NCBI GenBank assembly: GCA_002269645.1
Contig: NIVC01000952.1
Coordinates: forward strand, 214,967-278,966
DNA length: 64,000 bases
Direction of reading: 5' to 3'
DNA from: Macrostomum lignano
Lineage: Eukaryota
The position numbers and the translations under genes are program-made. The notes beneath the pieces were generated by a model. The model worked only from the letters and a program-made list of their open reading frames with translations, was not told the origin of the DNA and ran no database searches. Positions 1 through 26,953 of the stretch are shown here, one piece after another; positions within the stretch are counted from its first letter, which is position 1; each line of letters opens with the position of its first letter.

Positions 1-426
1 ATATTTTTCCTTTCTTTTTTTTAAGATATAATTTAATTGCTAAAAGTATTGATAAGTTCTGATCAATTCAAAACCTGATATTGAGCCAATTGAAATACCT
101 AAAATAATTGAGATAAATTAAGAGTTGGAATAGATTGTAAAATACCTAAAACGATTACACATAACATTGATAAGCTTCAAATCCAATATTGAAAAAGCAT
201 ATTTCTTATATGGTTTGAAACTCTTCTTACTTTTTTAGCATATAAATCATAATCATATTTAATTCGATCAACATTACTTAACATCTGACCTTTACGTTGG
301 TTGAACCGGTCGCGTTCCCATTTATCTGCTTCAGATACCGACATTCTCGTCTATTTTTAATAGCACCAAAATGAATTCCCCGCGCTCTTTGGGGATTTGC
401 CCGAGCTAATAGGTATTGTATTGGAG

Positions 427-654
427 TTATTCTTTCTTTTTTCTCCATTTAAATCCTATTTTCCAAAACTCTTGAAGTATAATATGATTTTTTAATAACT
501 TAATTAATTCTTGAAGCTTCTTATTATCCTGAACATTTACAGTACTAAATAAAAATTTGGTATGAGATTTGAATGTTTTTATATTTGATTCTTGTTTAGG
601 AATAGGAATAATAACATTATTTTGCCGCATCGATGGAGTTCTACTAAAAGCCAT
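427..654 (-). CDS. Small basic hypothetical viral protein (~75 aa, MAFSRTPSMRQ...)
   Basis: ATG at 654 preceded by TATAAA, an A-rich context like the other viral starts. No recognisable domain. Confidence 0.4.
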   Translation of the reverse strand: MAFSRTPSMRQNNVIIPIPKQESNIKTFKSHTKFLFSTVNVQDNKKLQELIKLLKNHIILQEFWKIGFKWRKKKE

Positions 655-737
655 TTTATATAGATAATATATTTTATATTTGAGTAGGAGGTTTTTCCAA
701 ATAAGCAGTAGAGGGAAAAACATAACCAAACGACGTA

Positions 738-1260
738 CTACCACATACAACCTGCACCACGAATAAAATGTGCAGCATCCGCTCCACCAGTTCGAGCACC
801 AAAACCCATAAGGGTTCCAGATTTATCTAAAGTTCCCAAGTTCCACTATCATATGTGAAAACGTTCTGTCCAATGAGGGTAAAAGAATCACCAGCAACAT
901 TGTATGACTGTAATCGGTACCAAACCCTTTGATTTAAAATATTAACTTCAAATAAATGCCAATGCCGTTATCAATATTAGCATAGGCTACAGTTTGATCT
1001 GCATCAGTATTAACATCGCGCGTGATCCGTCTGATTTTTTATTACTCCAAACAACTCCAAACCTATCAGTCCACTCACTAGCAAACACTATCAATCCGGC
1101 GTCGGTTGATAATCCAGTTCCAAATTCCGATGTTGGACGTTGGTGACAGTATGCATAAAACCAAACCGCATCTGCACCATCTCCTGTAGAATTAGCAACT
1201 CGGAAAAAGAAAGACGCAGATATATTTTGAAAATGTGTGAAATTGAATTGTAAAGCACCA
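738..1260 (-). pseudogene. Frameshifted C-terminal continuation of the fibre gene; legume-lectin/ConA-like domain
   Basis: Hand translation across about 3 frameshifts gives ...STGDGADAVWFYAY...NIDNGIWHLFEVNI...MGFGARTGGADAAHFIRG, resembling L-type lectin motifs (GxGADG-like and GFxAxTGG...H). Confidence 0.55.
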
Positions 1261-1261
1261 C

Positions 1262-2713
1262 TTACTCCAGAGTTTCACGAGTAATTCTAGCGCCGTTTTG
1301 ATAATCGATATAAGAAGCATCGCTAATTAAAGAACCGACTGGATATATATCTCCGGCGGTTGTTGGATTTTGATATCCAGACCAATTGCAAATTACTGGT
1401 TCGAACAAGGCCGCATCAATAGCAGGTATTCCATCCAATTTATTTTTATCGCTTCCAGACATTCTACCATTTGATGTTGGAGTAGCTAGCTGATCTACGT
1501 ACGCTCGCGGAACTGCAGAAAGTATTTGAGTTGGCCAATTAAGATCTTGAATTTCAACACGGTGTTCAAATAATTGTATTTGACGAACCTCGATAGGTTG
1601 TGTACCGGTACCACCAGTTGGGAAGAATACGCTATAATATTTCCAAAAATTAGTCGTTAAATTAGATAGAGCAAATGATGTTGCTTGAACTGGTGATCCC
1701 GACGTAGTTAATGTTGTCCATGAATCGGTAGCAACATTTTTTGCGCGAACCGACCACCCCGAGGGTATCTCAATTGTTTCACTGCCTGTAATTCTTAATT
1801 CAAATATTCTTCTATTATAACCTAAAAATTCAAATTGAATTTCCATATTGGTTGTGGTTCCGGTATTTGGTGACCATTGTGTCGCAAGGCTTCCATCTCC
1901 AACTCGAAAAGCTGTGTTGCCATTTTCAGATGCTGTAAGAACAACATCAGGATTTGAAGTATTTGATGTAAGCGGCGTGGTAAAAATATCGGCGTCGGTT
2001 GCATTAGCTCGCTCGTTTACTTGGCCTAGAGTTATCGAGTCTGCGTTCTCTGTTCCAAATAATAAATTTGTTAATTTAAAATTATTCATATTAATATTAC
2101 CACTACGAGTGGCAACTTGATTATCGACATAGTTCTTATCAACCACTGAATCACTAGTTGTAATTGAAACATTTATAATTCGGTTGTTGCTCATATCTAG
2201 GTTTCCGGTTGCGGTGGTTTGAACATAACGTGAATCAGAATCAGTTCGAGAATAAGAATCAGTTACATATCTTTTTAAATTTAATCCATTATCAACTTCG
2301 GTTTTGGTATAAGAATCGGCTACGTTCCGTTTCAAATTTAATGAATTATCAACTTCGGTTTTGGTATAAGAATCGGCTGTATTGCGTTTTAAATTTAATG
2401 AATTATCAACTTCGGTTTTGGTATAGGAATCGGCTGTATTGCGTTTTAAATTTAATGAATTATCAACTTCGGTTTTGGTATAGGAATCGGCTACGTTCCG
2501 TTTCAGATTTAGTGAATCATCTATTTGAGTTTTAGTATAGGAATCTGCAACGTTTCTTTTTAAATTTAGTTTAGTATCAACTTCACTTTTTTTATAACCT
2601 TCATCTTCATTAATATATCGATTATCTCCAAATGTAACACTTATTCCACCAGATGTGCCACCACCACCACTACTTGTTGTTCCGTTCCATGAGGGTGTTC
2701 CAGAAAATAACAT
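1262..2713 (-). CDS. Fibre/spike-like virion protein
   Basis: About six 17-aa repeats (LNLKRNxADSYTKTEVD), trimeric-stalk-like motifs (NLDMSNNRIINV, DKNYVD, DSITLGQV) and a discoidin/F5-8-type-C-like segment (GDGSLATQW...WTTL...EVRQIQLF). Confidence 0.65.
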   Translation of the reverse strand: MLFSGTPSWNGTTSSGGGGTSGGISVTFGDNRYINEDEGYKKSEVDTKLNLKRNVADSYTKTQIDDSLNLKRNVADSYTKTEVDNSLNLKRNTADSYTKTEVDNSLNLKRNTADSYTKTEVDNSLNLKRNVADSYTKTEVDNGLNLKRYVTDSYSRTDSDSRYVQTTATGNLDMSNNRIINVSITTSDSVVDKNYVDNQVATRSGNINMNNFKLTNLLFGTENADSITLGQVNERANATDADIFTTPLTSNTSNPDVVLTASENGNTAFRVGDGSLATQWSPNTGTTTNMEIQFEFLGYNRRIFELRITGSETIEIPSGWSVRAKNVATDSWTTLTTSGSPVQATSFALSNLTTNFWKYYSVFFPTGGTGTQPIEVRQIQLFEHRVEIQDLNWPTQILSAVPRAYVDQLATPTSNGRMSGSDKNKLDGIPAIDAALFEPVICNWSGYQNPTTAGDIYPVGSLISDASYIDYQNGARITRETLE

Positions 2714-2723
2714 TTTTTACTGT

Positions 2724-3191
2724 CTATTTTATAGAGTCTAAAATCGTGCCATCGGCACGCATGCTTTGCATGATACCCCTAAAGTCTTCGGGTCTTTCCT
2801 TCGAGTTATTAATTTTATATAAAAAATACAACGCCGCTTGCCCGCAATAACTTTTGTCAAATGTTTGAAATTGTTCGTGATGATCTCCACATAAACGATT
2901 TTTAGTATGATTAAATTTGTCTTTTATTTCCTGTAACGGAGGAAGCGCGTATGAATCAAAAAAATAAACAAGTTTTGGTTTTGAATAAACTGCTGACCAA
3001 TGAACACCGTTTTCTTTTGTTGTTTCAATATTAACAATGAAAGATCCATATTGTGGTAAGTCTTTGATCTCATCTCGCATAACACATCTGAATGGTTTTA
3101 TTTTTAACTGCCTCGCCCAATTTGTTAATTCGATATTGCTTGTTGTGTCCGTTCCATATCTTTGTTTAAAATCATCCCACGTCATGGTCAT
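2724..3191 (-). CDS. Adenain-like (Ulp1/adenovirus family) cysteine maturation protease
   Basis: Motifs GVHWSAVY (His), YFFDSY (Asp), QFQ (oxyanion Gln) and SYCGQ (Cys) in the expected order; 155 aa; Polinton context. Confidence 0.9.
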   Translation of the reverse strand: MTMTWDDFKQRYGTDTTSNIELTNWARQLKIKPFRCVMRDEIKDLPQYGSFIVNIETTKENGVHWSAVYSKPKLVYFFDSYALPPLQEIKDKFNHTKNRLCGDHHEQFQTFDKSYCGQAALYFLYKINNSKERPEDFRGIMQSMRADGTILDSIK

Positions 3192-3411
3192 TTTATGTTC
3201 CTGAAAAACTCTTGGTTTTAGTTAGTTTCGTAGGTGTGGGTTTTAACAATTCCTTTCTTATTTTATCAGCTTGTAACTGCCTTAATTTTGCTAGTTCTAT
3301 TCGTAATTATCTTCAGCTTTTTTAACTTTTTCTGATTGTTTTTTTATTAAATTATTATTATTATCGTGCTTTGCACGCGAACATGTTGTTCGATTACCCA
3401 TTTTTACAGTA

Positions 3412-4197
3412 CTAAACCTGTTTTATACGTAAAATCACTGTTATTGACTGCCCACCAAAACTTATTAATCTATCGCTTTCATCTACAATCCTAATATAAA
3501 TTGATTGAACATTATATTGATTTAATGGGTAATATATTGGGGTTTGGGGTGCAACAATCATTTTCTCTCCAATTGGAACAGCAAGAAATGGGATTGAATA
3601 AATAATTCCACGTTGAACCAAAACTCCGTTATCGTCTGTTATATAACCACCGTTTGAAATGTCGGTTGTTATATTAATTGTATTTACTCCACCCTCTATA
3701 TTTCCAACTGTATCACCGGTGCTTGATGTGGTAACTATTCGGGAATTAAATCCAAGTATGGTTCTGAGTGAATTTGCAATTGTGAAATCAACCTGATATC
3801 CGGATCCTAGTGATAGTGTGAATCTGCCAGACGGTAAATCAACACCTATAACAATTGCTCCTGCTACCCAATCACCATTAGTTGTTAATTCTCCTTCTAT
3901 ATAAGCATTCAAATCAGTATAGCTATACGCTCCTGGGTTAACGCTAAATGTTGTCCAATTGGCTCCGGAATCTTTAGAATATCTAAATTGATTATTTGTT
4001 GCATTAATTAATTGAGGCATGTTGAAAACCGAAAATAGTATTAAACCTATTTGATAACTTAGGCTTTGATCAAGTTGTAATGGATCGCGCAATTGAATCC
4101 GTTGCTCGCTGGTTGTCATTATAAACTGTAATGTTGTACTAAATTTTGAATTAGTTCGATCTACCAATTGTTTTATAGTATTTAAATTTGTAGTCAT
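3412..4197 (-). CDS. Minor capsid protein (penton, single jelly roll)
   Basis: 261 aa, beta-rich. C-terminus PIYYPLN...IYIRIVDESDRLISFGGQSITVILRIK is typical of Polinton pentons. Lies between the ATPase and protease genes. Confidence 0.82.
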   Translation of the reverse strand: MTTNLNTIKQLVDRTNSKFSTTLQFIMTTSEQRIQLRDPLQLDQSLSYQIGLILFSVFNMPQLINATNNQFRYSKDSGANWTTFSVNPGAYSYTDLNAYIEGELTTNGDWVAGAIVIGVDLPSGRFTLSLGSGYQVDFTIANSLRTILGFNSRIVTTSSTGDTVGNIEGGVNTINITTDISNGGYITDDNGVLVQRGIIYSIPFLAVPIGEKMIVAPQTPIYYPLNQYNVQSIYIRIVDESDRLISFGGQSITVILRIKQV

Positions 4198-4296
4198 TTT
4201 TATAGTGGGAAATTAATTGGACGAAGTCCGCGTTCCGAAGGAACGATCGAACGAAGTTCGCGACCCTATGGGGCGATCGTACCGAAGGTACGCGTG

Positions 4297-5097
4297 CTAT
4301 GCACGATCCTCTTCTTCCTCATTATCTTCTTTTATCAAATTTGTTAAAATTCTATGTTTCCTTTCTAACCTCGGATTGATATAAATATGTTTGTATTGTT
4401 TTTTTTCCCAAATTTTTTTACACATACTTTTAAATGGTTTTGCATCCAACCCGGGATTAAATCTAGCGTGTATATTTTGTAAATCATAGTTATCTAAATC
4501 AAACATTACACAACAACTTGCATTCTTTTTTATAATCGATTCTAATTCTCTAAAGGATTGAGTAAGATAAAAAGCTCCAATTCCATCTCCTCTACCACTA
4601 ACAAAAATTTCCTTTTGCAATTCTTGATCACCGTCATTAATACAATCATCAAAAATAATTAGTGTTTTATCATGTTTTGGAATTTGATCATAGGCTAATC
4701 GGGTTGATACTCTAACAGTTGGGGCTCGATCGGACGAAGTCCGCGACCCTTCGGGGCGATCGGTGATGTTTTCTGGCTGTTGTGCCATTGTTTTACATAA
4801 ATCCTCAATGTCTGCTAGATTAAATCGCGGTTCGTCATCATCCTCATATTGCTCATATGCTCTTAACATTCTAAACAAGACATCTTTTTTTAATTTGTTT
4901 TTTAATCCATGTTTAAGAAATTCATAATATTTTATTCTAGGTTTGTTAGTATAAATTATTAAATTATTATAGTCTAGCATTCCATCGGTTGTTAACAGGT
5001 CATAAACAAAGTGTGTTTTTCCTTTACCTGATCCTCCGATTACTAAACAAAGAAAAGGATCATTTGGAAATATTTTATTGTGTTTTGCCTTTACCAT
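4297..5097 (-). CDS. A32/FtsK-like genome packaging ATPase
   Basis: Walker A GGSGKGKT, Walker B LIIFDD, followed by SGR and LTQS motifs. Confidence 0.92.
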   Translation of the reverse strand: MVKAKHNKIFPNDPFLCLVIGGSGKGKTHFVYDLLTTDGMLDYNNLIIYTNKPRIKYYEFLKHGLKNKLKKDVLFRMLRAYEQYEDDDEPRFNLADIEDLCKTMAQQPENITDRPEGSRTSSDRAPTVRVSTRLAYDQIPKHDKTLIIFDDCINDGDQELQKEIFVSGRGDGIGAFYLTQSFRELESIIKKNASCCVMFDLDNYDLQNIHARFNPGLDAKPFKSMCKKIWEKKQYKHIYINPRLERKHRILTNLIKEDNEEEEDRA

Positions 5098-5145
5098 TTT
5101 TAAAGAAATAATTTAAATAGGCGCGACGGTCGGAGACCTGCGACA

Positions 5146-6618
5146 CTAAAGTGGTGCGTCCCGAACAATCGTGCCATCAGCTTTAGCAATTGACATATAT
5201 TCCTCTAGAAACAATACGTGTGCGTCAAGTGCCTGATTACCGGTTTTATTAATCTCTAACATATAATTAAGTCCAATATTGGCTACGTTTTCTTTCTGTG
5301 CCGTTAGATCATAAACAACCACTGGATGAATGTTTAGAAACTCTGTGGGTGTGTACTGAGGGACGGCATACGCTTCATTTTTAGCATAATCTTGATAATA
5401 TTTTATAAAATCATTAACATTATTATTTGCTATATTTAAATTTAGGGGGTCTTTAACCGGATAATATTGATCATCAACCTGCAGGCGGATATTCTGAACA
5501 TTAAACTCGTTAATAGCTGCAGCCGCATTGTCTGTTGCGGTGGCTGCTTGTTCTGCTATGGCACCGGATTGAAGCCAATATAAATCCCCATTTGCTCTTT
5601 TACTCCTTCTATTTGTTATCTTAAACCAAACAAAAATATATCTCACCCGACGTTTTGATGTCAGTATTTGCCACTGGAATGAATCCTGGTTATTATTAAT
5701 GGTTCGCATAAAATGTCGACGATTCAAATAAAATATTTCCTGATCATGCGTTAACTGATTATCGATGTGTTTTAAAAGTGGGGCTGTTACCTCAATAGTT
5801 GGTACGACTAATTGAATTGAATCTATACGAACTGCTATATCGGTTGAAATTGAGGTTCCATAAAGTATCCTAGGCTGATATCCACCAGATATTTGCAACT
5901 GTATCCCAAATTTTAATCCTTTCCATACCCGATTTGGTGAGAAAAACCCAAATAGTGGAAAGATTGAAAAGTCCTGCTCATATGCTGTTGCTGTTGTTAA
6001 AACCGCGACTGGGAATTTATTCTGACGATCTATAAAACCAGTATTAATATCTTTTGTATTAGTCATAGTGGTTACAACTGGAACTATGTTTGTATTAAGG
6101 TAAACAATTAGCGCTGCAGTATCTGCACCGGCTGCGTTTTGTACATTAGGGAAAACTACTGCTTGACCGTTACCTTTATCCGGCATCCACCCAACATTAT
6201 CACCAACTTGTTTTGATAAATAAGTATAATTTAAATGTTTCAAAACTCCATTAATCTCTGCGGGGTTTGATGATGTCTCAACCTCAGCACCATTAACAGT
6301 TAGTTGAGCTTGGGAAAAACATTTATAAAACCAATCATTTTCTATTATTATTCCGGATCGATCTGCGATATCTCCGGCTGCAAGAGCAGTTCCATCATTT
6401 CTAGTATACAACCATCTAACGCGGAAAAACGCATTTTTCATATCCAATATAGTGTTGGTTGCGCCGATGTCAAAAGTTACCGTTCCAGTAGTAAAGTTAT
6501 TTGAATTATCACTTGTTGGTAGGGTATAATTTAAATCTCTTGCTCTGACCTCATTAATATACTGTCGGTGCTTTTTGAAATGAAATTTATCACTCCACAT
6601 AGTTTTTGTTTCAGCCAT
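5146..6618 (-). CDS. Major capsid protein (double jelly roll)
   Basis: 490-aa beta-strand-rich intact ORF next to the ATPase. Size, position and segments such as FSQAQLTVNGAEVE and RLQVDDQYYP fit a Polinton MCP. Confidence 0.85.
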   Translation of the reverse strand: MAETKTMWSDKFHFKKHRQYINEVRARDLNYTLPTSDNSNNFTTGTVTFDIGATNTILDMKNAFFRVRWLYTRNDGTALAAGDIADRSGIIIENDWFYKCFSQAQLTVNGAEVETSSNPAEINGVLKHLNYTYLSKQVGDNVGWMPDKGNGQAVVFPNVQNAAGADTAALIVYLNTNIVPVVTTMTNTKDINTGFIDRQNKFPVAVLTTATAYEQDFSIFPLFGFFSPNRVWKGLKFGIQLQISGGYQPRILYGTSISTDIAVRIDSIQLVVPTIEVTAPLLKHIDNQLTHDQEIFYLNRRHFMRTINNNQDSFQWQILTSKRRVRYIFVWFKITNRRSKRANGDLYWLQSGAIAEQAATATDNAAAAINEFNVQNIRLQVDDQYYPVKDPLNLNIANNNVNDFIKYYQDYAKNEAYAVPQYTPTEFLNIHPVVVYDLTAQKENVANIGLNYMLEINKTGNQALDAHVLFLEEYMSIAKADGTIVRDAPL

Positions 6619-6652
6619 TTTTTTAAGTTAAAAAAGTTTTTTATGTTAAAAA

Positions 6653-7324
6653 ATGAGTCAATTTATGGACGTTGATGGAGAGTTAGCGATTTATAAAGAG
6701 AAGCAAAGATATTCTGATTTTGTTAGAAATTTACAAAAAAGAAAGTTAGGAATGCAATTAGCTGGCGAAAGATTTGCTGCTCCTTTTGTTAATCCTATTA
6801 CTGGGAAAATTAGTGAACTAGAAAAAACAGATAAAGATCTTCTGGAAAAAATTGCTAAAAATACGGAGCCAAAAGAGGATGAAATTTTGGATGAGCCGCC
6901 TGCTTATGAGGCTGATCAAGCATTATTTAGAGTTGCAGAAATTAGACGTGAAGAGATTAGGGGTGGAGTTGAACAATATCCGAGACCTGCACCAACTAGT
7001 ATTGCTGTGACAGATTTAGGTGGTGGTAATTATCGAATTGGTAACGTAGTTAAAGATCGAAATGAACTATATAGAGAATTGGGCGGAGCATTTAATATTA
7101 TTACGAACCCTAGGGTAAAATTTAACCCCGATTTATATACTAGGGATGAATTAATAAGTGCTAGAATTTTTTATGATGAGTTAGGAGGAGCTGTTAAAAA
7201 TACCAGCTTGTATAAATGGATTGTTAATTCTATAAATAACAAACCAGCTGTTGGTGATGGATTTAAAACACCGCGAAAACTTGTTTTAGCTGCTGCGAAA
7301 GCTGCTGGACATACTGGAGTTTAA
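6653..7324 (+). CDS. Hypothetical viral protein, possible protease-processed core protein
   Basis: Intact 223-aa ORF with an A-rich start context. Contains IRGG|V and LGGG|N, matching the adenain consensus (M/I/L)xGG|x. Confidence 0.6.
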   Translation: MSQFMDVDGELAIYKEKQRYSDFVRNLQKRKLGMQLAGERFAAPFVNPITGKISELEKTDKDLLEKIAKNTEPKEDEILDEPPAYEADQALFRVAEIRREEIRGGVEQYPRPAPTSIAVTDLGGGNYRIGNVVKDRNELYRELGGAFNIITNPRVKFNPDLYTRDELISARIFYDELGGAVKNTSLYKWIVNSINNKPAVGDGFKTPRKLVLAAAKAAGHTGV

Positions 7325-7351
7325 TTAATTGTTAAATTTATTTTTTATAAA

Positions 7352-7921
7352 ATGGATGAAACAAAAATTTGTACTACGTGTAAAATTGAGAAACCGATGA
7401 CTAAAGAATTTTTTTGTTGGAGAAATGACACAAAAAAATTTAAAAATCTTTGTCGATCTTGTGAGAAAGTTAAATGCACTATGTGGAGAATAAACAATAA
7501 AGATAAATGTAATAAATATGCAAAAAATAAATATCGCACTGATGAAAATTTCAAAAATATTAGTCTAATTAGAGCTAAAATAACTTGGGCATTGAGAACT
7601 TTTCATGACAAACATTATATCTCATATCTTGGTTGCACAAAAGAATTCTTTTTTGATTGGTTAAATTTCACAAGAAATTATTATGTTCCAAAAAATTATA
7701 CTGGAAAGTTAGATATTGATCATTTCATTCCCGCTTCTTCATTTAGTTACAAAGACGATGATCAGATTAAAAAGTCTGAAAATTGGAGAAATAAAAGATA
7801 CTTAACTAGCGTAGATAATAACTATAAAAAAGTTAAACAACCAACAATTGAAGAATTTGCGAAACAATTGGTGCTATCATGTATTTTTAAGGCTATTAAA
7901 AATGAACCAAATAGTGTTTGA
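7352..7921 (+). CDS. Free-standing HNH-family endonuclease with N-terminal CxxC...CxxC zinc finger
   Basis: CTTC...CRSC, then YLGCT...LDIDHFIPASSF...ENWRNKRYLTSVDNNYKK, matching the H-I-P...N...N pattern of viral HNH/EndoVII-like nucleases. Confidence 0.75.
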   Translation: MDETKICTTCKIEKPMTKEFFCWRNDTKKFKNLCRSCEKVKCTMWRINNKDKCNKYAKNKYRTDENFKNISLIRAKITWALRTFHDKHYISYLGCTKEFFFDWLNFTRNYYVPKNYTGKLDIDHFIPASSFSYKDDDQIKKSENWRNKRYLTSVDNNYKKVKQPTIEEFAKQLVLSCIFKAIKNEPNSV

Positions 7922-9509
7922 AGGAGGATTTTTAGACTTACAAAAAGGATTAACAAGCTTACCACCAATCTTTACTACTGGGAGGTATACGGGTGAGCTA
8001 CACCTACCATCAATGAACTTCACAGGTTAACCCGTGGCCTGAGTGAGGAAGGCAATGTCCTTGCTAGTCACTATTTGTGGCGACATCTCCAAATTGCGTG
8101 AAACCCGTCATACAGCTTCAAGTACCACTTCAAGTGAGAAATCTTTTGAAGGAACAGAGGTAACTCCTCTTCCCAATCGGACTTCGTCCGCGAACCTATG
8201 GTTCGATGGTAACAAGCTTGAAGACACGGTGGCAATGCGCAGCCAAGCTCCTAAGTATTTTAAATATAAGGAGAAGGTTCAGAGAGCAGACGGAGATGGG
8301 CGGTAATTATCGCCGCTTAAGGTGTGCTCCAGCCTCATTCGAAAGATTGAGGGTAAACAGCCGGGGACTAGACTGGATTTAAGATTAAATCCTGACAATA
8401 CTCCAAAATCTGATTCAATTCCAATAAATGGGATTGATTGGTTAGCATACTATCACGACTTAGCATATAGAGATGCTGACAAGAACCCGCCCGAGGAAGC
8501 ATTAAGATTAAAACATGAAGCCGATCAAAAAATGATTCAAGGATTAGATAACTTGCAGGGATTATCGGTAGGTCAAAAATTAACTAGGTGGATGGTTAAA
8601 AAGATCTTGCAGTCTAAAGTTAAATTTGGTTTGGGAATTAATTATAATCAACATGGAAATAATTGTGTTGAGTGTTTACTATTAAGTGGCAGTGGGTTAA
8701 GTTCTGATGAGGCAAAGATTCTTCATAAAGAATATCGAAAACCTAAATTTTATAGAAAAATCATGAACTTCAAAAAGAATGAAATTTGGTATGCTGATTT
8801 AATGTCGATGCCGAAAGATCTGGGATATAAATATATCTTAACCATATTAGATGGTTTTACTCGATACGCGTGGGCTGTTCCTTTGAAATCCAAAAAAGGA
8901 GAGGATGTTGCTGCTGCTTTTAGAAGTCTTGGAGAAAAAAGCGAACGTTTGTGTGTTGACGAAGGAAAAGAATTTTACAATCCTCACATGTATAAATTGT
9001 ATCATTTTGAAAAAGGACAAGAAAGGAAAAAGGACGCGAATGGGGAGTATATTAATAAAATTTATTCTATTTATGGAGAGAGTAAAAACGCATTAATAGA
9101 AAGATTTAATAGAACTTTAGGTAAGAAATTATGGTTTCAGTTTAGTCTTAATGCTAACCAAAAATGGGTAAAAATATTACCAGACGTAGTGAAAGATTAT
9201 AACAATTCATATCATTCGGCGATAAAGATGACTCCTCAACAAGCTTATAACAATCCTGAAAATGTTAGGGTTACTTTTGGAGAATTTGAAAAAAAGAAAA
9301 CTAAAGATTTTAAAGTTGGTGATTCTGTTTATATCTATAAATGGAAAGATAAGTTTGAAAAGGGAAGAAAAGGATATTGGAAAATAAGTGAGAAATTTAC
9401 TATCAGTAAAGTTTTAAATACCAATCCCACAACCTATATAATTGCTGATAAGGATGGTGAAGAAATATTGGGTTCTTTTTATGAGAACCAGATAATGTCT
9501 GCGAACTAA
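7902..9509 (+). CDS. PLA2 (parvovirus VP1u-like)-retroviral-type integrase fusion, join(7902..8027,8361..9509), 424 aa
   Basis: Joining the exons gives HLPSMNFTG|PGTRL...PINGIDWLAYYHDLAY (PLA2 Ca loop and HD motif). This is followed by the integrase core WYADL...LTILDGFTRYAWAVPL...CVDEGKEF...LIERFNRTL (DDE) and a Maverick-type C-terminal domain FKVGDSV...GEEILGSFY. Confidence 0.88.
8028..8360 (+). ncRNA. Group I self-splicing intron (IC1-like), 333 nt, no substantial internal ORF
   Basis: 5' exon ends in U8027; intron ends in G8360. Helices read by eye: P1 CAGGU/GCCUG(8037-41) with U.G wobble; P2.1 GUCAC/GUGGC; P3 CAUCUCC(8084-90)/GGAGAUG(8292-98); P4 UGCGUG/UGCGCA; P6 GCC/GGU; P7 G[A]GAGCA(8282-88)/UGCUCC(8325-30); P8 GGCGGU/AUCGCC; P9 CCUCA/UGAGG with GAAA loop. 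P, Q, R and S elements are recognisable. Confidence 0.93.
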
Positions 9510-9519
9510 GTTCAAACAG

Positions 9520-9744
9520 TTACTTAAGACAACATGGTAGTAAATTTTTTATAACAAACAAAAACAATATTATTACTATAATTGTTACTAATATTATTAT
9601 TGACATTTGTTCAACTGTTATCAAACTTAAATTTTCATTAAGTTCATTAATCGGCACATTTCCGATGTAGGAATAGTTTACCTTCATTTTTTTATATATA
9701 TTTTTCACAATAAATGTCGTTTCTGTTATAGAATAATAGTTCAT
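9520..9744 (-). CDS. Small single-pass membrane protein (74 aa), viral
   Basis: Hydrophobic stretch SIIILVTIIVIILFLFVI near the C-terminus; A-rich ATG context. Confidence 0.45.
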   Translation of the reverse strand: MNYYSITETTFIVKNIYKKMKVNYSYIGNVPINELNENLSLITVEQMSIIILVTIIVIILFLFVIKNLLPCCLK

Positions 9745-9760
9745 TTTTTAAATATTTTTT

Positions 9761-10075
9761 TCACATAAAAATTTCACTTTCATTCTCTGATTCACTGGTT
9801 TCATATGAACTATTTGTTGATTCGGAATCTGTTGATCTAACCTCCCAATCATCCGAATTTAAATAATCTCCAAGTTGAAATATTAGCTCACCCTCTTGTT
9901 CTAAATCATACATCTCATCTAGCTCTAATGGATAAAGTTTTAGGTCGTGCTTGTCGTCATATTTTAAATAAACTTCATCAATTATTCCATTCAAAATATG
10001 TTGTTTTATTATCTCTGCATTTTTAGCAACAGTCTCAAAAGTATCACTAACAGAAAAGGTGTAAACTCGGTTCAT
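9761..10075 (-). CDS. Small acidic hypothetical viral protein (104 aa)
   Basis: Intact ORF with an A-rich ATG context and an acidic/Ser-rich tail. Confidence 0.5.
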   Translation of the reverse strand: MNRVYTFSVSDTFETVAKNAEIIKQHILNGIIDEVYLKYDDKHDLKLYPLELDEMYDLEQEGELIFQLGDYLNSDDWEVRSTDSESTNSSYETSESENESEIFM

Positions 10076-10129
10076 TTTTTATAACAGAAAAAGACCCTTC
10101 GCGCCTGCGGCGCGTGCGACGGGTTATAG

Positions 10130-10423
10130 AGAATTGGAAGTGTTAGAAGTGTTGGAAGCGTTGGAAGCGTTGATACGATACAAAATACCCAGCAAACCGA
10201 AGCGAACGACGAGAGTGTGTTCTCACCATTCAAAAAGAATTAATCGTTGTAAGTGTGAAATGGGGAGATTGACCGAAATGAAGCGAGGATGAGCGAAGCG
10301 AGTTGAGCGAAGTGAAGACGAGCGATAATGAAGGGAAAACGAGTCATTTCACACTGATAAAGGGTTAAATTGTTTGCAATGGTGAGAATGGTTTGCTGGG
10401 TATTTTGTATCGTATATACTACT
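10130..10423. repeat. Probable right terminal inverted repeat region of the Polinton
   Basis: Short 9-nt tandem repeats (GGAAGCGTT), an internal inverted repeat, and terminal ACTACT at 10418-10423. The following TCTGTC would be the 6-bp TSD. The partner TIR is not in the window, so the inner boundary is approximate. Confidence 0.65.
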
Positions 10424-10905: not shown

Positions 10906-13184
10906 CCTGTCAGCAGGCTGGCCGCCCCCGCGCACCAACACCTGGTGCTTGAGGCTCTCCTGAATGTAGGTCAGCTCCTCCCGGCTAATCCAGGGATTGA
11001 CGGCTGGCGAGCTGTGCGCCAGAATGCTCCAGGCGATGAACCATGCGATGCCGGATGCACCTGGAGTATGACAATCGTTTGCGAGCGTTGCTATGCGTGA
11101 TTGCTGCTATTGGAACTGTTGCTATGCCGATGGCCCTGGGAACTCACCAAACGTGTAGAACACTGCTGGCCAGCCGCCTAGGAAATCGGTGGAGCACAGG
11201 TAGCCGCTGAGCGGCAGGCCAATCACCGTGCCCATGTGGCTGCCTGCTCGAGTAGGAATCATTTGGCGATTGGTTCACTGTTAGTTGCTATGCGGATGAT
11301 TGCTACGCAACTGCGTAGTAACAGGGTTTTTGCTAGTGAATGACTGCTACAAGGGTATGCAGATGGTTGCTATGCGAATGGTTGCTACGCGGATGATTGC
11401 TTTGCTGAGGGTTGCTATGCGGATTGTTCCTTTGCTAAGGGTTGCTATGCGGATGGTTCCTTTGCTAAGGGTTGCTATGCGGATGGTTTCTTTGCTAAGG
11501 GTTGCTATGCGGATGGTTCCTTTGCTAAGGGTTGCTATGCGGATGGTTCCTTTGCTAACGGTTGTTATGCCTATGCGGATGTTTGCTGTTGGTGGTTGCT
11601 ATGCGCATAGTAGCTACGCGGATAGTTGCTATATGGATAGTTGCTATGCGAATGGTTGCTATGCCGATGGTTGCTATGTTGATGGTTGCTATGCGGATGT
11701 TGCTATGCGAATGGTTGATGCTATGTTGATAGCTGCTACGAGGATGGTTGCTGTGCAGATGGTAGCTATGCGGATGGTTGCTATGAGGATGATTGCTATG
11801 TGGATGATAGCTATGCTGACGGTTGCTATGCGGGTGGTTGAGATTAACTTTTAAACTTTCGCGTACCTGAAATGATGAAGACGGCCATGGTGGTTCTCTC
11901 GACCGGCGGCGCCCACTGGCTCAGCATGGCATTCAATGAGGGAAACGTAACGCCCTGTCGAGATCGGGATGAACTTGGAGTTATGAGTACGGATTTTTGA
12001 AAAAAAATGCAGAAATTCAGAGCCCTCGCTGACCTCGCCGACGCCCTCCAGCACGCGCAGGCAGATTAGGGCGGCCACGCCCCAGTGCGCAGCCAGGGGG
12101 GTCAGCAGCGTCAGGGCCGCGGTCCACAGAATGCCGATGCCGAGCACCCACTTGGCGCCGAAGCGCTCGGCCAGCAGGCCGCCGGGGATCTGCGTGACGA
12201 TGTAGCCCCAGAAGAATGAGCCCAGAATCAGGCCCTGGGTCTGCTCGTCCCAGCTGAACTGCCCGGCCTGCGGGGCCAACGTCGGATCAGGGATGCACCG
12301 GTAGGGCAAAATGCATCGGGGAGGGCAAAATGCATCGGGGAGGGCAAAATGCATCGGGGGGGGGGCAAAATGCATCGGGGGGGGGCAAAATGCATCGGGG
12401 AGGGCAAAATGCATCGAGGGGGAGGGCAAAATGCATGGGGGGCAAAATGCATGGGGGGCAAAATGCATGGGGGGGCAAAATGCATGGGGGGCAAAATGCA
12501 TGGGGGGCAAAATGCATGGGGGGCAAAATGCATGGGGGCAAAATGCATCGGGGAGGGCAAAATGCATCGGGGAGGGCAAAATGCATCGGGGGGGGGGGCA
12601 AAATGCATCGGGGAGGGCAAAATGCATGGGGGCAAAATGCATGGGGGCAAAATGCATGGGGGGCAAAATGCATGGGGGCAAAATGCATGGGGGGCAAAAT
12701 GCATGGGGGGCAAAATGCATTGAGGGGCAAAATGCATTGAGGGGGGGCAAAATGCTTGGGGGGGGGCAAAATGCATTGAGTGGGGGGGGCAAAATGCATG
12801 GGGCAAAATGACAATGTATCGGGGGGAGGGCAAAATGCATTGAGTGGGGAGGGCAAAATGCATGGGGGATGTATCGTGGGAGGTAAAAATGCATCACTTG
12901 TGCAAAATATGACGAACTTGAATAGCTTAGCTTAGAAGCAACAAAAGAAATCGAGCCAAAGTCCCTCGGCTTACCCTCGCAGCCGATGTGTCATTCGAAG
13001 CAGAGTCAGGCGGGCAGACCTCGTCATCGCTGGGCCCGGACTGATTCAAACTCGCAGGCGATATCCTGCCCGTTGCGTTTACCATGGCAACCAGAGCTAC
13101 GCTGAGGTTCACGCGCAGCATGTACACGATGGCGAAGCCCATGAAGCTGAGCACGCATAGCAGAGCGCGCTGGCTGACCGCCAT
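10906..13184 (-). CDS. SLC17/sialin-like anion:cation symporter (MFS), 5' five exons only
   Basis: Exons translate to [34 protein letters not shown]; [25 protein letters not shown]...RVLEGVGE; [20 protein letters not shown]; [13 protein letters not shown]...GWPAVFY; [13 protein letters not shown]...[18 protein letters not shown] boundaries seen where checked. Confidence 0.9.
11270..11835. repeat. Degenerate ~15-bp minisatellite (GGTTGCTATGCGGAT) in SLC17 intron
   Basis: Direct reading of the sequence. Confidence 0.9.
12301..12865. repeat. G-rich ~17-21-bp minisatellite (GGGCAAAATGCAT(C)GGG) in SLC17 intron
   Basis: Direct reading; it explains the spurious HFAP/GAKC ORFs. Confidence 0.95.
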
Positions 13185-17471: not shown

Positions 17472-20400
17472 TCAGCCGCAGTCAGCTGTCCCGTCTTCGT
17501 TCCTGAGCTGCTTGCCGGAGTCAATTAGGTTCAGGGCCTCCCGAGCGGCGGGGCCGCCTCCGGCATCATTGTTACCTTCTCCGCCTCTCCGGCCGGCGTA
17601 GACGTCGCAGCAGTGCACCAGGAAGTCGATCAGCTCCACGATGAAGATCATCGTTAGGCCGACAAAGATCGACAGCAGGCCGCCGACCTGGCTAAGAAAT
17701 GATGTCAGCGACAGGACCTCCTTTTCCTCTACTTGGTGCAGGTCGAAGTTCGGTCGGATGAGCTGGATGGACAGCAGGTTCCGCTCCAGGATGCTGACAT
17801 TTTGCACCAGCTGGAAAGCGGAGTCCAGTCGGCCCGCGCGCTCCAGCTCGATGGCCTTCGCGTAGATCTGCATCTCCGGCCGCTGCTGCAGGCGGCTGTA
17901 GACGCGGGTCTGCAGCAGGTACAGCTGCCACGCCTTGGTGGGCCAGTCGGAGGTCGACCGCTCGGTCTGGTAGCTGTAGAAGGCGCACGGAATGCTGCAA
18001 CTCTCCACCACGTCCTTGGAGTACTTGGAGATCACGGCCTGCTTGCAGCGGATGTGCTCGTACGCCCTGTCCAGGGCCGCTTCGCAAACTTTGCTGCTGC
18101 TGTTGCCGGCTGTGCAGGCGCCCAGGGGCAGAAATTCTTGGAGACCGGTGCAGTAGGTGATGTTGCTGCCAGCCTCCTCGGGCACCAGCGGGTACTCGAT
18201 GGCCTGTTGCGGTGGTTCAAGTAACTGAGGTGAGCAAACGGGTGATCTTTTATTGACGTTTTTAGTGAGTTGTGATGATCCGTCAGGATTTGGTGAATTT
18301 TCTAAGAAACAAAGGGTCAGCAGGGAGCCGCTGAGGTCACCTGACAGCCGCAGGAGGCTCGGATGTCCATCTGGATGGTCATCTGCCTGCAGGCGTCCTC
18401 GCTGTAGCTGTACTCCCTGCCCTGCAGCCCCAGCGACTGCGGGGTGTCCGCTGTCCGGCGAGCAGCGCCCGTACGGCGGCTGCTTCTGGACGTTCAGCAC
18501 GTGCTTGAGCTTGACCTCGGTGAGCGAGCCGGACTTCAGGTGCACCGCGTTGTTGTTCACATCCGGGTGCGTGTCGCCGGAGTGAATGGTCAGCACCGCG
18601 CCAGACAGCTGCGTGTTGATGTCCTGCGGGCGGGGCGAGCCAGGAATCAAGTCCTCAATGCCTTATTGAATGCACCGGTAGGGGGCAAAATTGAATTTAT
18701 TGCAGACTTGCGCTGCGGACCGCGCTAAGTGCTCGGAATGACTTGCAGCATGAAGGCAAAACAATAAAGACGGAAGCGTACCGGCCAATTTATAATTCAG
18801 ACCGATGAAAGGCAAAAAGATAATGTTTCATATCCCTCATTTGCTATTTGTGTTGGAGATCCCCTATTGTCACCTACGCCACTCTCGATCAGCCTGCAAT
18901 CGATCCGGATAATCAGTCTGCAATCTAATCAGTCTGTAATCTACGCTCGTAATAAGTGTACAATCTAATCAGTGTACAATCTAATCAGTCTGCAATCTAA
19001 TCAGTGTACAATCTAATCAGTCTGCAATCTAATCAGTGTACAATCTAATCAGTCTGCAATCTAATCAGTGTACAATCTAATCAGTCTGCAATCTAATCAG
19101 TGTACAATCTAATCAGTCTGCAATCTAATCAGTGTACAATCTAATCAGTCTGCAATCTAATCAGTCTGCAATCTAATCAGTGTACAATCTAATCAGTCTG
19201 CAATCTAATCAGTGTACAATCTAATCAGTCTGCAATCTAATCAGTGTACAATCTAATCAGTCTGCAATCTAATCAGTGTACAATCTAATCAGTCTGCAAT
19301 CTAATCAGTGTACAATCTAATCAGTCTGCAATCTAATCAGTGTACAATCTAATCTGTCTGCAATCTAATCTGTCTGCAATCTAATCAGTCTGCAATCTAA
19401 TCAGTCTGCAATATAATCAGTGTACAATCTAATCAGCCTGCAAGATAGTCTGCAATCTAATCAGTCTACAATCTAATCAGTCTGCAATCTAATCAGTCTG
19501 CAATCTAATCAGTCTGCAATCTAATCAGTCTGCAATCTAATCAGTGTACAATCTAATCAGCCTGCAAGATAGTCTGCAATCTAATCAGTCTGCAATCTAA
19601 TCAGTGTACAATCTAATCAGCCTGTAATCTAATCTGTCTGCAATCTAATCAGTCTGCAATCTAATCAGTGTACAATCTAATCAGTCTGCAATCTAATCTG
19701 TCTGCAATCTAATCAGTCTGCAATATAATCAGTCTGCAATCTAATCTGTCTGCAATCTAATCAGTCTGCAATCTAATCAGTCTGCAATCTAATCAGTCTG
19801 CAATCTAATCTGTCTGCAATCTAATCAGTCTGCAATCTAATCAGTCTGCAATATAATCAGTCTGCAATCTAATCTGTCTGCAATCTAATCAGTCTGCAAT
19901 CTAATCAGTCTGCAATCTAATCAGTCTGCAATCTAATCAGCCTGCAATCTAATCTGTCTGCAATCTAATCAGTCTGCTATCTAATCAGTCTGCAACCTAA
20001 CTAGTCTATGCTCGTAGTCAAACATAAATCTTCAAGCCTGCAGCTCACCTGCAGGTAGCAGTCGGTGCAATAGAAATGCTCCGGGCTCCACTCGTTGTCC
20101 AGGTACACGGCCATCTCAACCAGAGACGCGTTCTGCCGCAGCTTCTCGTCGATGTCCAGCGTGAAACAGTTCAAGAAGCTGCCGTGAACGAATGCGTGGA
20201 AGCGGCCGGCCCAGAGGTCCAGCGGGCTGGGCGCGAACTCGCGGGCAGTAGTACTGGTTGCGGGCGCTGCCGTTGCGCAGCAGCACCTTGCATTCCACGA
20301 TGAAGTCAACGAGCTCGTGGCCCAGCTGGCTGTCCTGGCCGCTCGGCAGGCTCTCCAGGAAGGCCGGCAGGCCGAAGGAGCCGGTGAAGTAGTGGTACTT

Positions 20401-20814
20401 GTGCCGCGTCTCCGGCTTGTCGAAGTACTGCCTCCTGGCCGCGACCTCCAGCGCCATCGAGAACTGTCGTGGATTCTTCCAGCCGTGCTGCCGGATCAGC
20501 GACTTCCCGCGCGAGGACAGCGGCCGCATGTTGCAGATGGTCAGCGAGGGGAACGGCGAGCTGGCGTCCTTCAGCACGCGCGGCGGGTGCATGACGTCAT
20601 ACTCGAGGAACTGGCCGACGAGGAAGCTCAGGCAGACGAGGCAGCTGGCGAACAGCATCAGCACGAAGAAGGTCCACAAGAGGCGCAGCCGGGTGGACTC
20701 GGACTTGACGATCCGCGGGATGCCCCGGATGGTGGTGTTCTCGCAGAAGCGGACAAACTGGCGGCGCAGCTCGGAGCCGCGGCCTCTGGGCGGCGGCGGC
20801 TGTGGCGGCGGCAT
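17472..20814 (-). CDS. DEG/ENaC/ASIC-family ion channel (about 3 exons; two apparent frameshifts near 20250 and 18450)
   Basis: FCENTTIRGIPRI, TM1 LWTFFVLMLF..., FPSLTICN, NCFT, PYGRC, Cys-rich thumb, and TM2 FLSQVGGLLSIFVGLTMIFIVE. Confidence 0.9.
18905..20000. repeat. 16-bp minisatellite (CAATCTAATCAGTCTG / ...GTGTA) filling the DEG/ENaC intron
   Basis: Direct reading. Confidence 0.97.
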
Positions 20815-23765: not shown

Positions 23766-24157
23766 CCTGGTCTGTACCGGGGCCCAGTTGCCAAGCTATC
23801 AGATTTCCTAACGGCCGTTTAAGCCGCCCTCTGCCCCACGATTTTCTCTCGCTCGGACACCCGCAATCGATAGCTGCCCGGCCCGCTGGACACATTCCGC
23901 TGTCGCGACTCGGCCACCGGGTCGAACACTGCGCCCTGCACCCGGAAATTGAAATCGCTGGTTTGCCCTCCTCCAATTTCCCAGCTGCCAGCCGGATAGA
24001 ACTCTCCCACTCGCCTCTGCAACACTGAGTGGCGCAGAAGTCTTCTGCAGCTGAGAGCTTCATGCCACCTCATACCAGCGATTTTCCATTGGCTTGGGAA
24101 ATTGGGGGCGGTTTGGGGATCAACTTTCTGCTTAATCAAAAAGCTTTTAGTCTGCAG

Positions 24158-24724
<567 letters not shown>

Positions 24725-25291
24725 GTGTAATTTTTCCTTGCCCTCTACTTGCAGTAGCAGATTAAACAAGTAAGATGTGTTTCTCTAAGTATTCGTAGGC
24801 TGCAAATCTGAAAAGCTGACAAACAAATATTTCAGGGGTTGCGCAGATTCTGCGGCTCAGTGAGGCGCGATGGATGGCCTTTGCAAAGCTGCGGCTCCAT
24901 CCGGGCAGCTGACTCGTATAATCCACAAAATTTTTCAACGGCTAGCGAGGATTTGTGGAAGCTTGACAACCGGTGCGCACTTGAAATTCCTATCGAAGCG
25001 GTGGTCCCAAACTGCTCGCCCGGACTTAAAGGGGCCAAAACAATGAAGGCCTTCTTATCAACTGCTGGCTCCAGTGCACCGAAGGGGATGTTGTCACAAG
25101 CGCGGACTTTCCACAGGGTCCGGTGGAAATGAGAGCCAGATTGGCTCCAGTATGACAGTCAGAGTCAGCACTCGATTGCACACAACACTTGAGAATTGTT
25201 CACCAGCCATCAAATGAACCTTTCAGTGCAAAGTGGCAAAAAAATAAGTACGAGCCGTGCCAGCGTCAAAGAAGACGCCAAGAGCAGATGG

Positions 25292-26823
<1,532 letters not shown>

Positions 26824-26953
26824 GGCTCTAAGACTGCCTCCTTCCAGCCAATGGCAGCGCGAGCAGCCCATAAAAACAGCCAGACAAAAGCGGCCGCACA
26901 GAAGTCAAGAGTGGGCGGCTACTCCGAGCCAACAGCGAGGACCCAAAGCAGCG

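Follow-up and report, generated by a model that had tools for sequence, protein, structure and literature searches.

The window analyzed here, a stretch of 64,000 nucleotides from Macrostomum lignano, contains a probable nuclease-intron collaboration in an animal integrating virus. The feature is real and richer than on first reading, and its HNH nuclease is a possible participant. The intron splits one DNA word that the element cannot otherwise avoid, probably shielding the element from a restriction-type nuclease encoded by its sister copies.

A Polinton-like Element in an Animal Genome

The element is recognized by its AT-rich base composition, which extends from window position 1 to about 10.4 kb, and similarity to sister copies stops near position 10423, the right boundary of the insertion. 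By copy comparison and word counts, positions 1..10423 represent the right part of a Polinton-like insertion; the DNA to the left of the window is largely masked. The minus strand encodes an A32-type packaging ATPase (4297..5097; PF04665, E 7.3e-7) and a probable major capsid protein (5146..6618). The capsid gene is named from its size and position and has no curated Pfam match itself; a gene of similar size beside the ATPase matches a double-jelly-roll family, in a second family of copies (family 2) only. On the plus strand, a conserved 223-residue gene of unassigned family (6653..7324) forms the upstream border of a nuclease slot (7352..7921), which is occupied here by the gene for a 189-residue zinc finger and HNH (DH..N..N) endonuclease of subtype H1. 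The slot is followed on the same strand by exon 1 of a PLA2-integrase gene (7902..8027, 42 codons), a nuclease-free group I intron of type A (8028..8360, RF00028), and exon 2 (8361..9509, 382 residues), which encodes the rest of a parvovirus-type PLA2 and then an rve integrase.

The rve integrase, A32 ATPase, and PLA2 by which Polintons and adintoviruses are recognized are thus all present. The large polymerase-like ORF of sister copies has an Endo VII domain and gave no Pfam match to PolB. In family 2, some elements are flanked by a primase-D5 helicase and others by a polymerase-like ORF with Endo VII (L169 7250-9748 versus L171 7502-9961), and these differing genes suggest replicase exchange or nesting. 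The genes flanking the insertion in the window encode an amiloride-sensitive channel and a neurotransmitter-gated channel domain, with exons at 20116-20814 and about 27100-27640, and they fit an animal host. Long simple and short tandem repeats at 11357-12894 and 24062-27100 give rise to spurious repetitive ORFs.

Searches of the same genome gave 150 scored PLA2 exon 2 matches of 509 candidates, 130 HNH matches, and 103 matches to a second nuclease. The copies examined (110 of the 150 matches and 30 further loci) correspond to 126 distinct places; the set is biased toward window-like copies, and some of its members may be assembly duplicates. Family 1, which includes the window copy, has 120 loci, and family 2 (about 58% PLA2 identity) has 6 in this set.

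A Group I Intron Splits the PLA2-Integrase Gene

The PLA2-integrase gene starts with an ATG at 7902, overlapping the HNH gene by 20 nucleotides, and the HNH stop codon lies 106 nucleotides before the intron, both as given in the preliminary description. Exon 1 comprises 126 nucleotides and ends on a Gly codon within the GPG loop of PLA2; the reading frame of exon 2 begins with a Pro codon at 8361 and stays open to 9509. Removal of the intron would rejoin Gly and Pro in frame. The PLA2 match (PF08398) has an E-value of 0.0014 for exon 2 alone and 3.4e-9 for an uninterrupted family 2 copy, and the integrase matches PF00665 with E 4.8e-7. Across copies, both exons and both nucleases are under selection, with a pN/pS of 0.28-0.36 for exon 1. 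A spliceosomal intron (GT..AG, 8026-8360) was excluded, as its 335 nucleotides would break the reading frame. Short palindromic insertions of about 30 nucleotides occur at the overlap of slot and exon 1 (window 7905-7908 region) and at the upstream border in L009, L025, L038, L067, and other copies, and a similar hairpin of ~30 nucleotides accounts for a length variant inside the intron (303 versus 333 nucleotides).

A local E-value Rfam scan assigns the 333-nucleotide intron to RF00028 with 64.6 bits (E 5.2e-16; cut-off 50); a whole-window scan at gathering level with fast filters missed it and returned 0 matches. Introns of sister copies score 62.2 and 88.9 bits. The sequence folds better than 100 of 100 shuffled versions (z -2.8). 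The internal guide is located at about 8037-8041, the P7 strands are at 8284-8288 and 8325-8329, and at the 5' splice site the last U of exon 1 enters into the U.G pair of P1. P3, P4, and P7 are paired and the G-C guanosine site is present, as expected of a group I core; P7 differs at three pairs between families 1 and 2 with pairing kept. The single long open frame in the window intron is a read-through of the ribozyme core, and no nuclease is encoded there. The preliminary description was therefore right that an intron without an ORF adjoins a free-standing nuclease gene, the arrangement of a collaborative pair. The in-frame exons and an exon 1 pN/pS of about 0.3 lend indirect support to self-splicing with exon ligation.

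A terminal G is near-universal in group I introns, and the window copy ends in G at 8360. Among type A introns (L001-L133), 26 of 93 end in G and 67 in A, with the P7 G-C pair unchanged; in the latter, the terminal A follows an intact P9.0-like dinucleotide. All 15 parsed ends of family 2 introns are G. A Coxiella intron is reportedly a precedent for a terminal A. Constraint on exon 1 is similar whether the intron ends in A (pN/pS 0.28) or in G (0.33), which suggests that A-ending introns splice, though recombination could blur this signal. No joint across the intron was found in contigs of three presumed-RNA runs and one unlabelled run, a result that is uninformative either way. A-ending junctions predominate in the unspliced contigs of the three presumed-RNA runs.

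A different intron, type B, occupies the same site in 24 copies (L067 2168-2493 and 23 other loci). It has the same 5' start and a different core, and it gave no Rfam match at E 0.01. No in-frame 3' site restores Pro-Gly exactly, and in 24 of 24 copies the 3' end is two bases longer than a simple Pro-Gly junction would require. Type B would be a second, group I-like intron at one site. The type B intron of L115 holds an insertion of about 830 nucleotides with six GGNCC sites, which was probably gained after integration.

The Free-standing Gene Encodes a Predicted HNH Endonuclease

The ORF at 7352-7921 on the plus strand is intact, and its 189-residue product is a predicted HNH (beta-beta-alpha-Me) endonuclease on the basis of both its modeled fold and its catalytic His and Asn. 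A word-index search returned 0 matches and a profile search 17,442. The model has a pLDDT of 94.9, compared with 58.5 for an earlier model built from 15 close copies only, and it matches viral HNH proteins with E<1e-8, among them an "intron encoded endonuclease" of Bodo saltans virus (E 5.7e-9). His-124 and Asn-147 are invariant in 100 aligned homologues, and Asp-123 and Asn-156 are conserved at 90% or more. Structure prediction thus bears out the identity first proposed for the protein. Pfam gave no HNH match for it, PDB sequence searches yielded nothing informative, and the PDB structure matches of the model were weak only (Cas9 HNH and Cap5, Z 4-5).

The nuclease half of the protein, with a dN/dS of 0.14-0.68, is under purifying selection by this measure, and the N-terminal half (0.64-1.27) is not clearly so. 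At least four HNH subtypes have a common nuclease half joined to a strongly differing zinc finger and helical N-terminal half (window 7352-7620 versus sisters), as if specificity domains had been swapped.

Relatives outside this genome connect the HNH protein with the intron. The metagenome HNH proteins P0012 (36% identical to the window protein), P0178, and P0180 and the Eco47II-like nucleases P0166 and P0172 carry an identical translated intron core at their C terminus; therefore, HNH and Eco47II-like genes look like cargo of one intron lineage. The tail occurs in one of the best 150 profile matches (P0012), in four members of the P0012 cluster, and in 6 of 9 Eco47II-like matches. The intronic location of these outside relatives is read from protein tails, because scans found no DNA context for nuclease relatives outside the worm's own genome.

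An Eco47II-like Nuclease Alternates with HNH in One Slot

The second nuclease is a predicted PD-(D/E)XK enzyme that lies inside the intron in family 2 and is free-standing upstream of exon 1 in family 1. Against Pfam RE_Eco47II (PF09553, cut-off 25.9 bits), the intronic form scores 26.2 bits and the free-standing form 20.6; the Atlas neighbors belong to the Eco47II and EcoO109I families (Atlas 0.94). The protein has about 150-167 residues with no added DNA-binding domain, and its dN/dS is 0.16-0.25. In family 1, the HNH and Eco47II-like (167 residues) genes share start and stop context and the same borders. HNH occupies the slot in 85 of 118 typed copies and the Eco47II-like gene in 33. Intron A occurs with HNH in 65 copies, with the Eco47II-like gene in 26, and with the slot missing in 2; the corresponding numbers for intron B are 17 and 7. 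Of the six family 2 copies, five are uninterrupted and have no upstream nuclease, and one has the nuclease inside its intron. When 20 further loci were chosen by the Eco47II-like protein, 19 carried it within the intron at an identical codon boundary (including one shortened locus), and the remaining one was a family 1 slot copy. Both states thus occur, and the many intronic relatives favor exit from the intron or turnover as a possible origin of the slot genes.

The exchange of slot genes bears on a reading in which HNH is a domesticated viral protein with a packaging or replication function unrelated to homing. Such a role has a parallel in a protist Polinton-like virus (PLV), for which packaging was suggested for an HNH protein beside the ATPase (PMC12220804, in the part available), and the gene is under purifying selection. 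Against it, the gene is dispensable, an unrelated fold taking its place in 33 of 118 copies, its N-terminal half diversifies, and its relatives are intron cargo. We regard domestication as very improbable.

The preliminary description would take equal presence of HNH in intron-less relatives as a refutation of its pairing with the intron, and the copies do show HNH there, so that an exclusive pairing is not supported. All 3 intron-less copies among the 120 carry HNH (p=0.56), two of the three with a complete reading frame and unaltered catalytic residues, and they belong to at least two distinct lineages. Conversely, 33 intron-bearing copies lack HNH, and the slot gene is independent of intron type (Fisher p=1.0). 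HNH or Eco47II-like state is also unlinked to flanking variants (maximum r2 0.26); the window and L027 carry different slot genes despite only 6 differences across 672 upstream positions and 5 across the 333 of the intron. Such near-free shuffling implies recombination among these Polintons as viruses that occur together.

For the expected co-conversion, the copies give a mixed picture. All 12 copies of subtype H4 have intron B; the linkage is strongest over the intron (r2 as high as 0.54) and low upstream, and the linkage of H1 likewise points downstream. HNH as a class is unlinked, and exon 1 distances within subtypes of 6.7-10.3% leave no clean co-conversion tract. Four-fold-site diversity, based on few sites, is highest on the two sides of the intron (0.27 and 0.31, versus 0.03-0.23 elsewhere in the flanking genes).

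These data can be read in a second way, in which HNH nicks or cuts the uninterrupted junction and the intron blocks it, making HNH an interchangeable collaborator beside the Eco47II-like enzyme. The intron-less HNH copies would then survive by variant flanks or would have arisen after integration; their exon 1 ends are diverged, so they might be immune, and three such copies are too few for significance (p=0.56). HNH stays a candidate second collaborator because the same intron lineage carries its relatives as cargo, with intron-core tails identical to those of Eco47II-like proteins. The constant pairing of H4 with intron B and the subtype linkage that leans toward the intron agree with this role, as do the diversity peak at the intron flanks and the lower dN/dS of the nuclease half relative to the N-terminal half. 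The presence of HNH in three of three intron-less family 1 copies from at least two lineages, the missing linkage of slot state to intron type and flanking variants, and the lack of a clean tract over exon 1 speak against it. On balance, a collaborating HNH is a minority reading, though one to be taken seriously, and the window HNH looks like a rival occupant of the Eco47II-like nuclease's slot rather than the intron's proven partner.

The Element Has Lost the Word That the Intron Interrupts

The specificities of Sau96I and EcoO109I, alongside that of Eco47II, are the background for a GGNCC target. An Eco47II homologue has been tied to GGNCC, in the available part of PMC10305163, with the authors' caveat "without certainty." Carried over from such distant bacterial relatives, the inferred specificity of the Eco47II-like enzyme would be GGNCC. 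Gly followed by Pro is always encoded with GGNCC, and the insertion point of the intron falls between those two codons; loss of GGNCC was therefore predicted before the words were counted. Observed and expected numbers were compared and the word was ranked among 256 gapped words.

In window 1-10200, GGNCC occurs 0 times versus 9.3 expected, and GGACC and GGGCC are both zero. It is the most depleted of the 256 gapped words there and in both families 1 and 2. Six other family 1 stretches gave 0/8.2, 0/8.3, 1/9.1, 0/8.5, 3/10.2, and 0/8.7 (observed/expected). Seven family 2 stretches gave 0, 0, 0, 0, 0, 1, and 0 versus 5.9-11.6 expected, with rank 1 of 256 in each; an eighth was short and uninformative. 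At the protein level, nine window ORF segments contain 0 Gly-Pro pairs in 2,491 residues, compared with 5.5 expected. In 252 kb from the 120 family 1 loci, only 11 GGNCC sites remain, of which the uninterrupted junctions account for 3 and a single insertion for 6, with the other 2 scattered. The predicted target is thus present at uninterrupted junctions and absent from those of intron-bearing copies. The host flanks show no depletion (25/17.4 and 9/8.8, observed/expected). Because copies within a family are not independent, the purge amounts in effect to two observations.

Other words are affected less. Family 1 shows partial depletion of CCNGG and CTNAG, and in window 1-10200 CGAAA/TTTCG (CGAAA 16 versus 38), CTNAG, and CCNGG are under-represented and not absent. 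No missing word specific to HNH was found, that is, none at zero with a high expectation save a few 6-mers as in the control family. HNH gave no match in 26 family 2 loci, so the purge common to families 1 and 2 tracks the Eco47II-like gene.

A third abundant Polinton-like family (family 3, L178-L190, 150 scored PLA2 matches) encodes PLA2 and integrase as separate, divergently oriented genes and keeps its GGNCC sites. Its PLA2 has an intact Gly-Pro, with 16 GGNCC versus 13.5 expected; over 12 loci including host DNA the count is 144 versus 198, a mild depletion with rank 3-7 in 5 of 12. No intron or nuclease match was found in family 3, which makes it a candidate victim of the Eco47II-like nuclease.

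The purge could also be due to an outside enzyme from a helper giant virus or a former host, with the Eco47II-like protein acting as a long-site homing endonuclease and the intron merely residing in a conserved motif. Clusters of the Eco47II family do exist in Nucleocytoviricota, introns generally favor conserved motifs (PMC2988022, part available), and uninterrupted copies of families 1 and 2 persist. However, both purged families carry the gene while co-resident family 3, without the gene, keeps its sites, and the protein has no added DNA-binding domain. An outside enzyme therefore appears improbable to us.

The Intron as a Probable Shield against a Sister-encoded Nuclease

We consider it somewhat better than an even chance that the intron is an immunity device against the lineage's own Eco47II-like nuclease, and not primarily against HNH. 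The Eco47II-like enzyme would cut GGNCC, and the element would protect itself by removing every other GGNCC site. The remaining, unavoidable GGNCC would be interrupted in the DNA by the intron, and RNA splicing would restore Gly-Pro. A purged, intron-less sister would then have exactly one cut site, at the insertion point, and the intron and adjacent nuclease could therefore spread by repair, that is, by collaborative homing; unpurged DNA would be cut many times. The general scheme of the preliminary description, a free-standing nuclease, an intron without an ORF, and a protected site, is retained in this model, with the Eco47II-like enzyme favored over HNH as the nuclease. All 33 Eco47II-like family 1 carriers have an intron, though with p=0.56; the gene accompanies an uninterrupted junction in 0 of 8 cases, of which 5 are family 2 copies where its absence is automatic (family 1 p=0.56).

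HNH would be another mobile endonuclease, whose most likely mode of spread is intronless homing of its own, and its carriers could be immune through sequence variation at the site. Continued circulation of Eco47II-like copies would explain why HNH copies keep the intron. The mild GGNCC depletion of family 3 and the partial depletion of CCNGG and CTNAG in family 1 count against this model, as do a specificity transferred from distant bacterial enzymes and the HNH relatives that are intron cargo. Chromosomal expression of a 4-base cutter would be toxic and would have to be limited. Pfam scans found no methyltransferase among 9 window proteins and 11 further proteins, a part of the full element's ORFs.

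Taken as a whole, these elements may be animal Polintons with methyltransferase-less restriction, purged of GGNCC and with the last site hidden by an intron, in which one enzyme acts as shredder and as one-site homing endonuclease, HNH variants and two introns compete, and splicing uses mostly a terminal A. This full combination falls slightly short of an even chance. Nuclease family, insertion site, and missing word agree exactly, which provides a rare direct target prediction. If correct, the model adds a new form of immunity to a self-encoded restriction enzyme and accounts for the retention of an intron that brings no homing advantage. The Eco47II-like enzyme would shred the unpurged DNA of hosts or competitors and, in purged sisters that lack the intron, act as a homing endonuclease, and group I ribozymes would be at work in an animal nuclear genome.

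Comparison with Known Systems

Collaborative homing is known from phages, for example cyanophage S-PM2 (F-CphI/psbA), T3-like phages, and the terminase intron of ICP1 (PMC3984707, PMC10448857; see also PMC2988022, PMC11296320, and 10.64898/2026.10.13.758929 on homing and turnover; all available in part). As in those systems, a group I intron without an ORF interrupts a conserved motif, with a free-standing nuclease gene by the 5' exon; here both free-standing and intron-encoded nuclease states occur. The "HEG turnover" alternative, as given in the accessible part of PMC10448857, fits the slot exchange. In contrast to the phage systems, the present one belongs to a eukaryotic virus that has integrated into the genome of an animal. 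Two unrelated nucleases take turns in one slot, a single site accommodates two different introns, and the best-fitting nuclease looks like a short-site restriction type with genome-wide site loss.

No report of group I introns in animal Polintons, or of intron-based immunity to a short-site nuclease, was found in the literature searched, in which subscription journals are mostly uncovered; reports of such introns concern protist PLVs. Group I introns of 309-376 bp from Rhodomonas, Paulinella, and Desmodesmus (PMC12220804, part available) are likewise short RF00028 introns in PLV genes, in the same size range. In the available part of that source, they are confined to a small number of protist groups, the interrupted gene is unannotated, and neither a nuclease partner nor site avoidance is described; its supplementary ncRNA tables may list more hosts. 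Intron nucleases serve as weapons against co-infecting relatives in Bodo saltans virus (PMC5871332) and phage PhiPA3 (gp210, PMC11620839), according to the parts of both sources available. There, as proposed here, the intron masks the nuclease target; ORF-less offspring introns occur, and the window HNH is predicted to fold like a Bodo saltans virus intron endonuclease. Those nucleases are intron-encoded, however, and the available text describes no genome-wide purge of a short site.

With adintoviruses and Polintons that carry PLA2X (PMC8502044, part available), the element shares an rve integrase, an A32 ATPase, a parvovirus-like PLA2, and integration in animal genomes. It differs in that a single reading frame joins PLA2 to the integrase and a group I intron divides PLA2; the accessible part of that source mentions no such intron. 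Polinton polymerases that bear HNH domains are described in the available part of 10.1101/2023.08.22.554363. The Eco47II-like enzyme resembles the type II restriction enzymes of PF09553 in sequence family and in its inferred GGNCC target. Unlike type II restriction, protection appears to come from site avoidance and an intron, with no methyltransferase among the nine window proteins.
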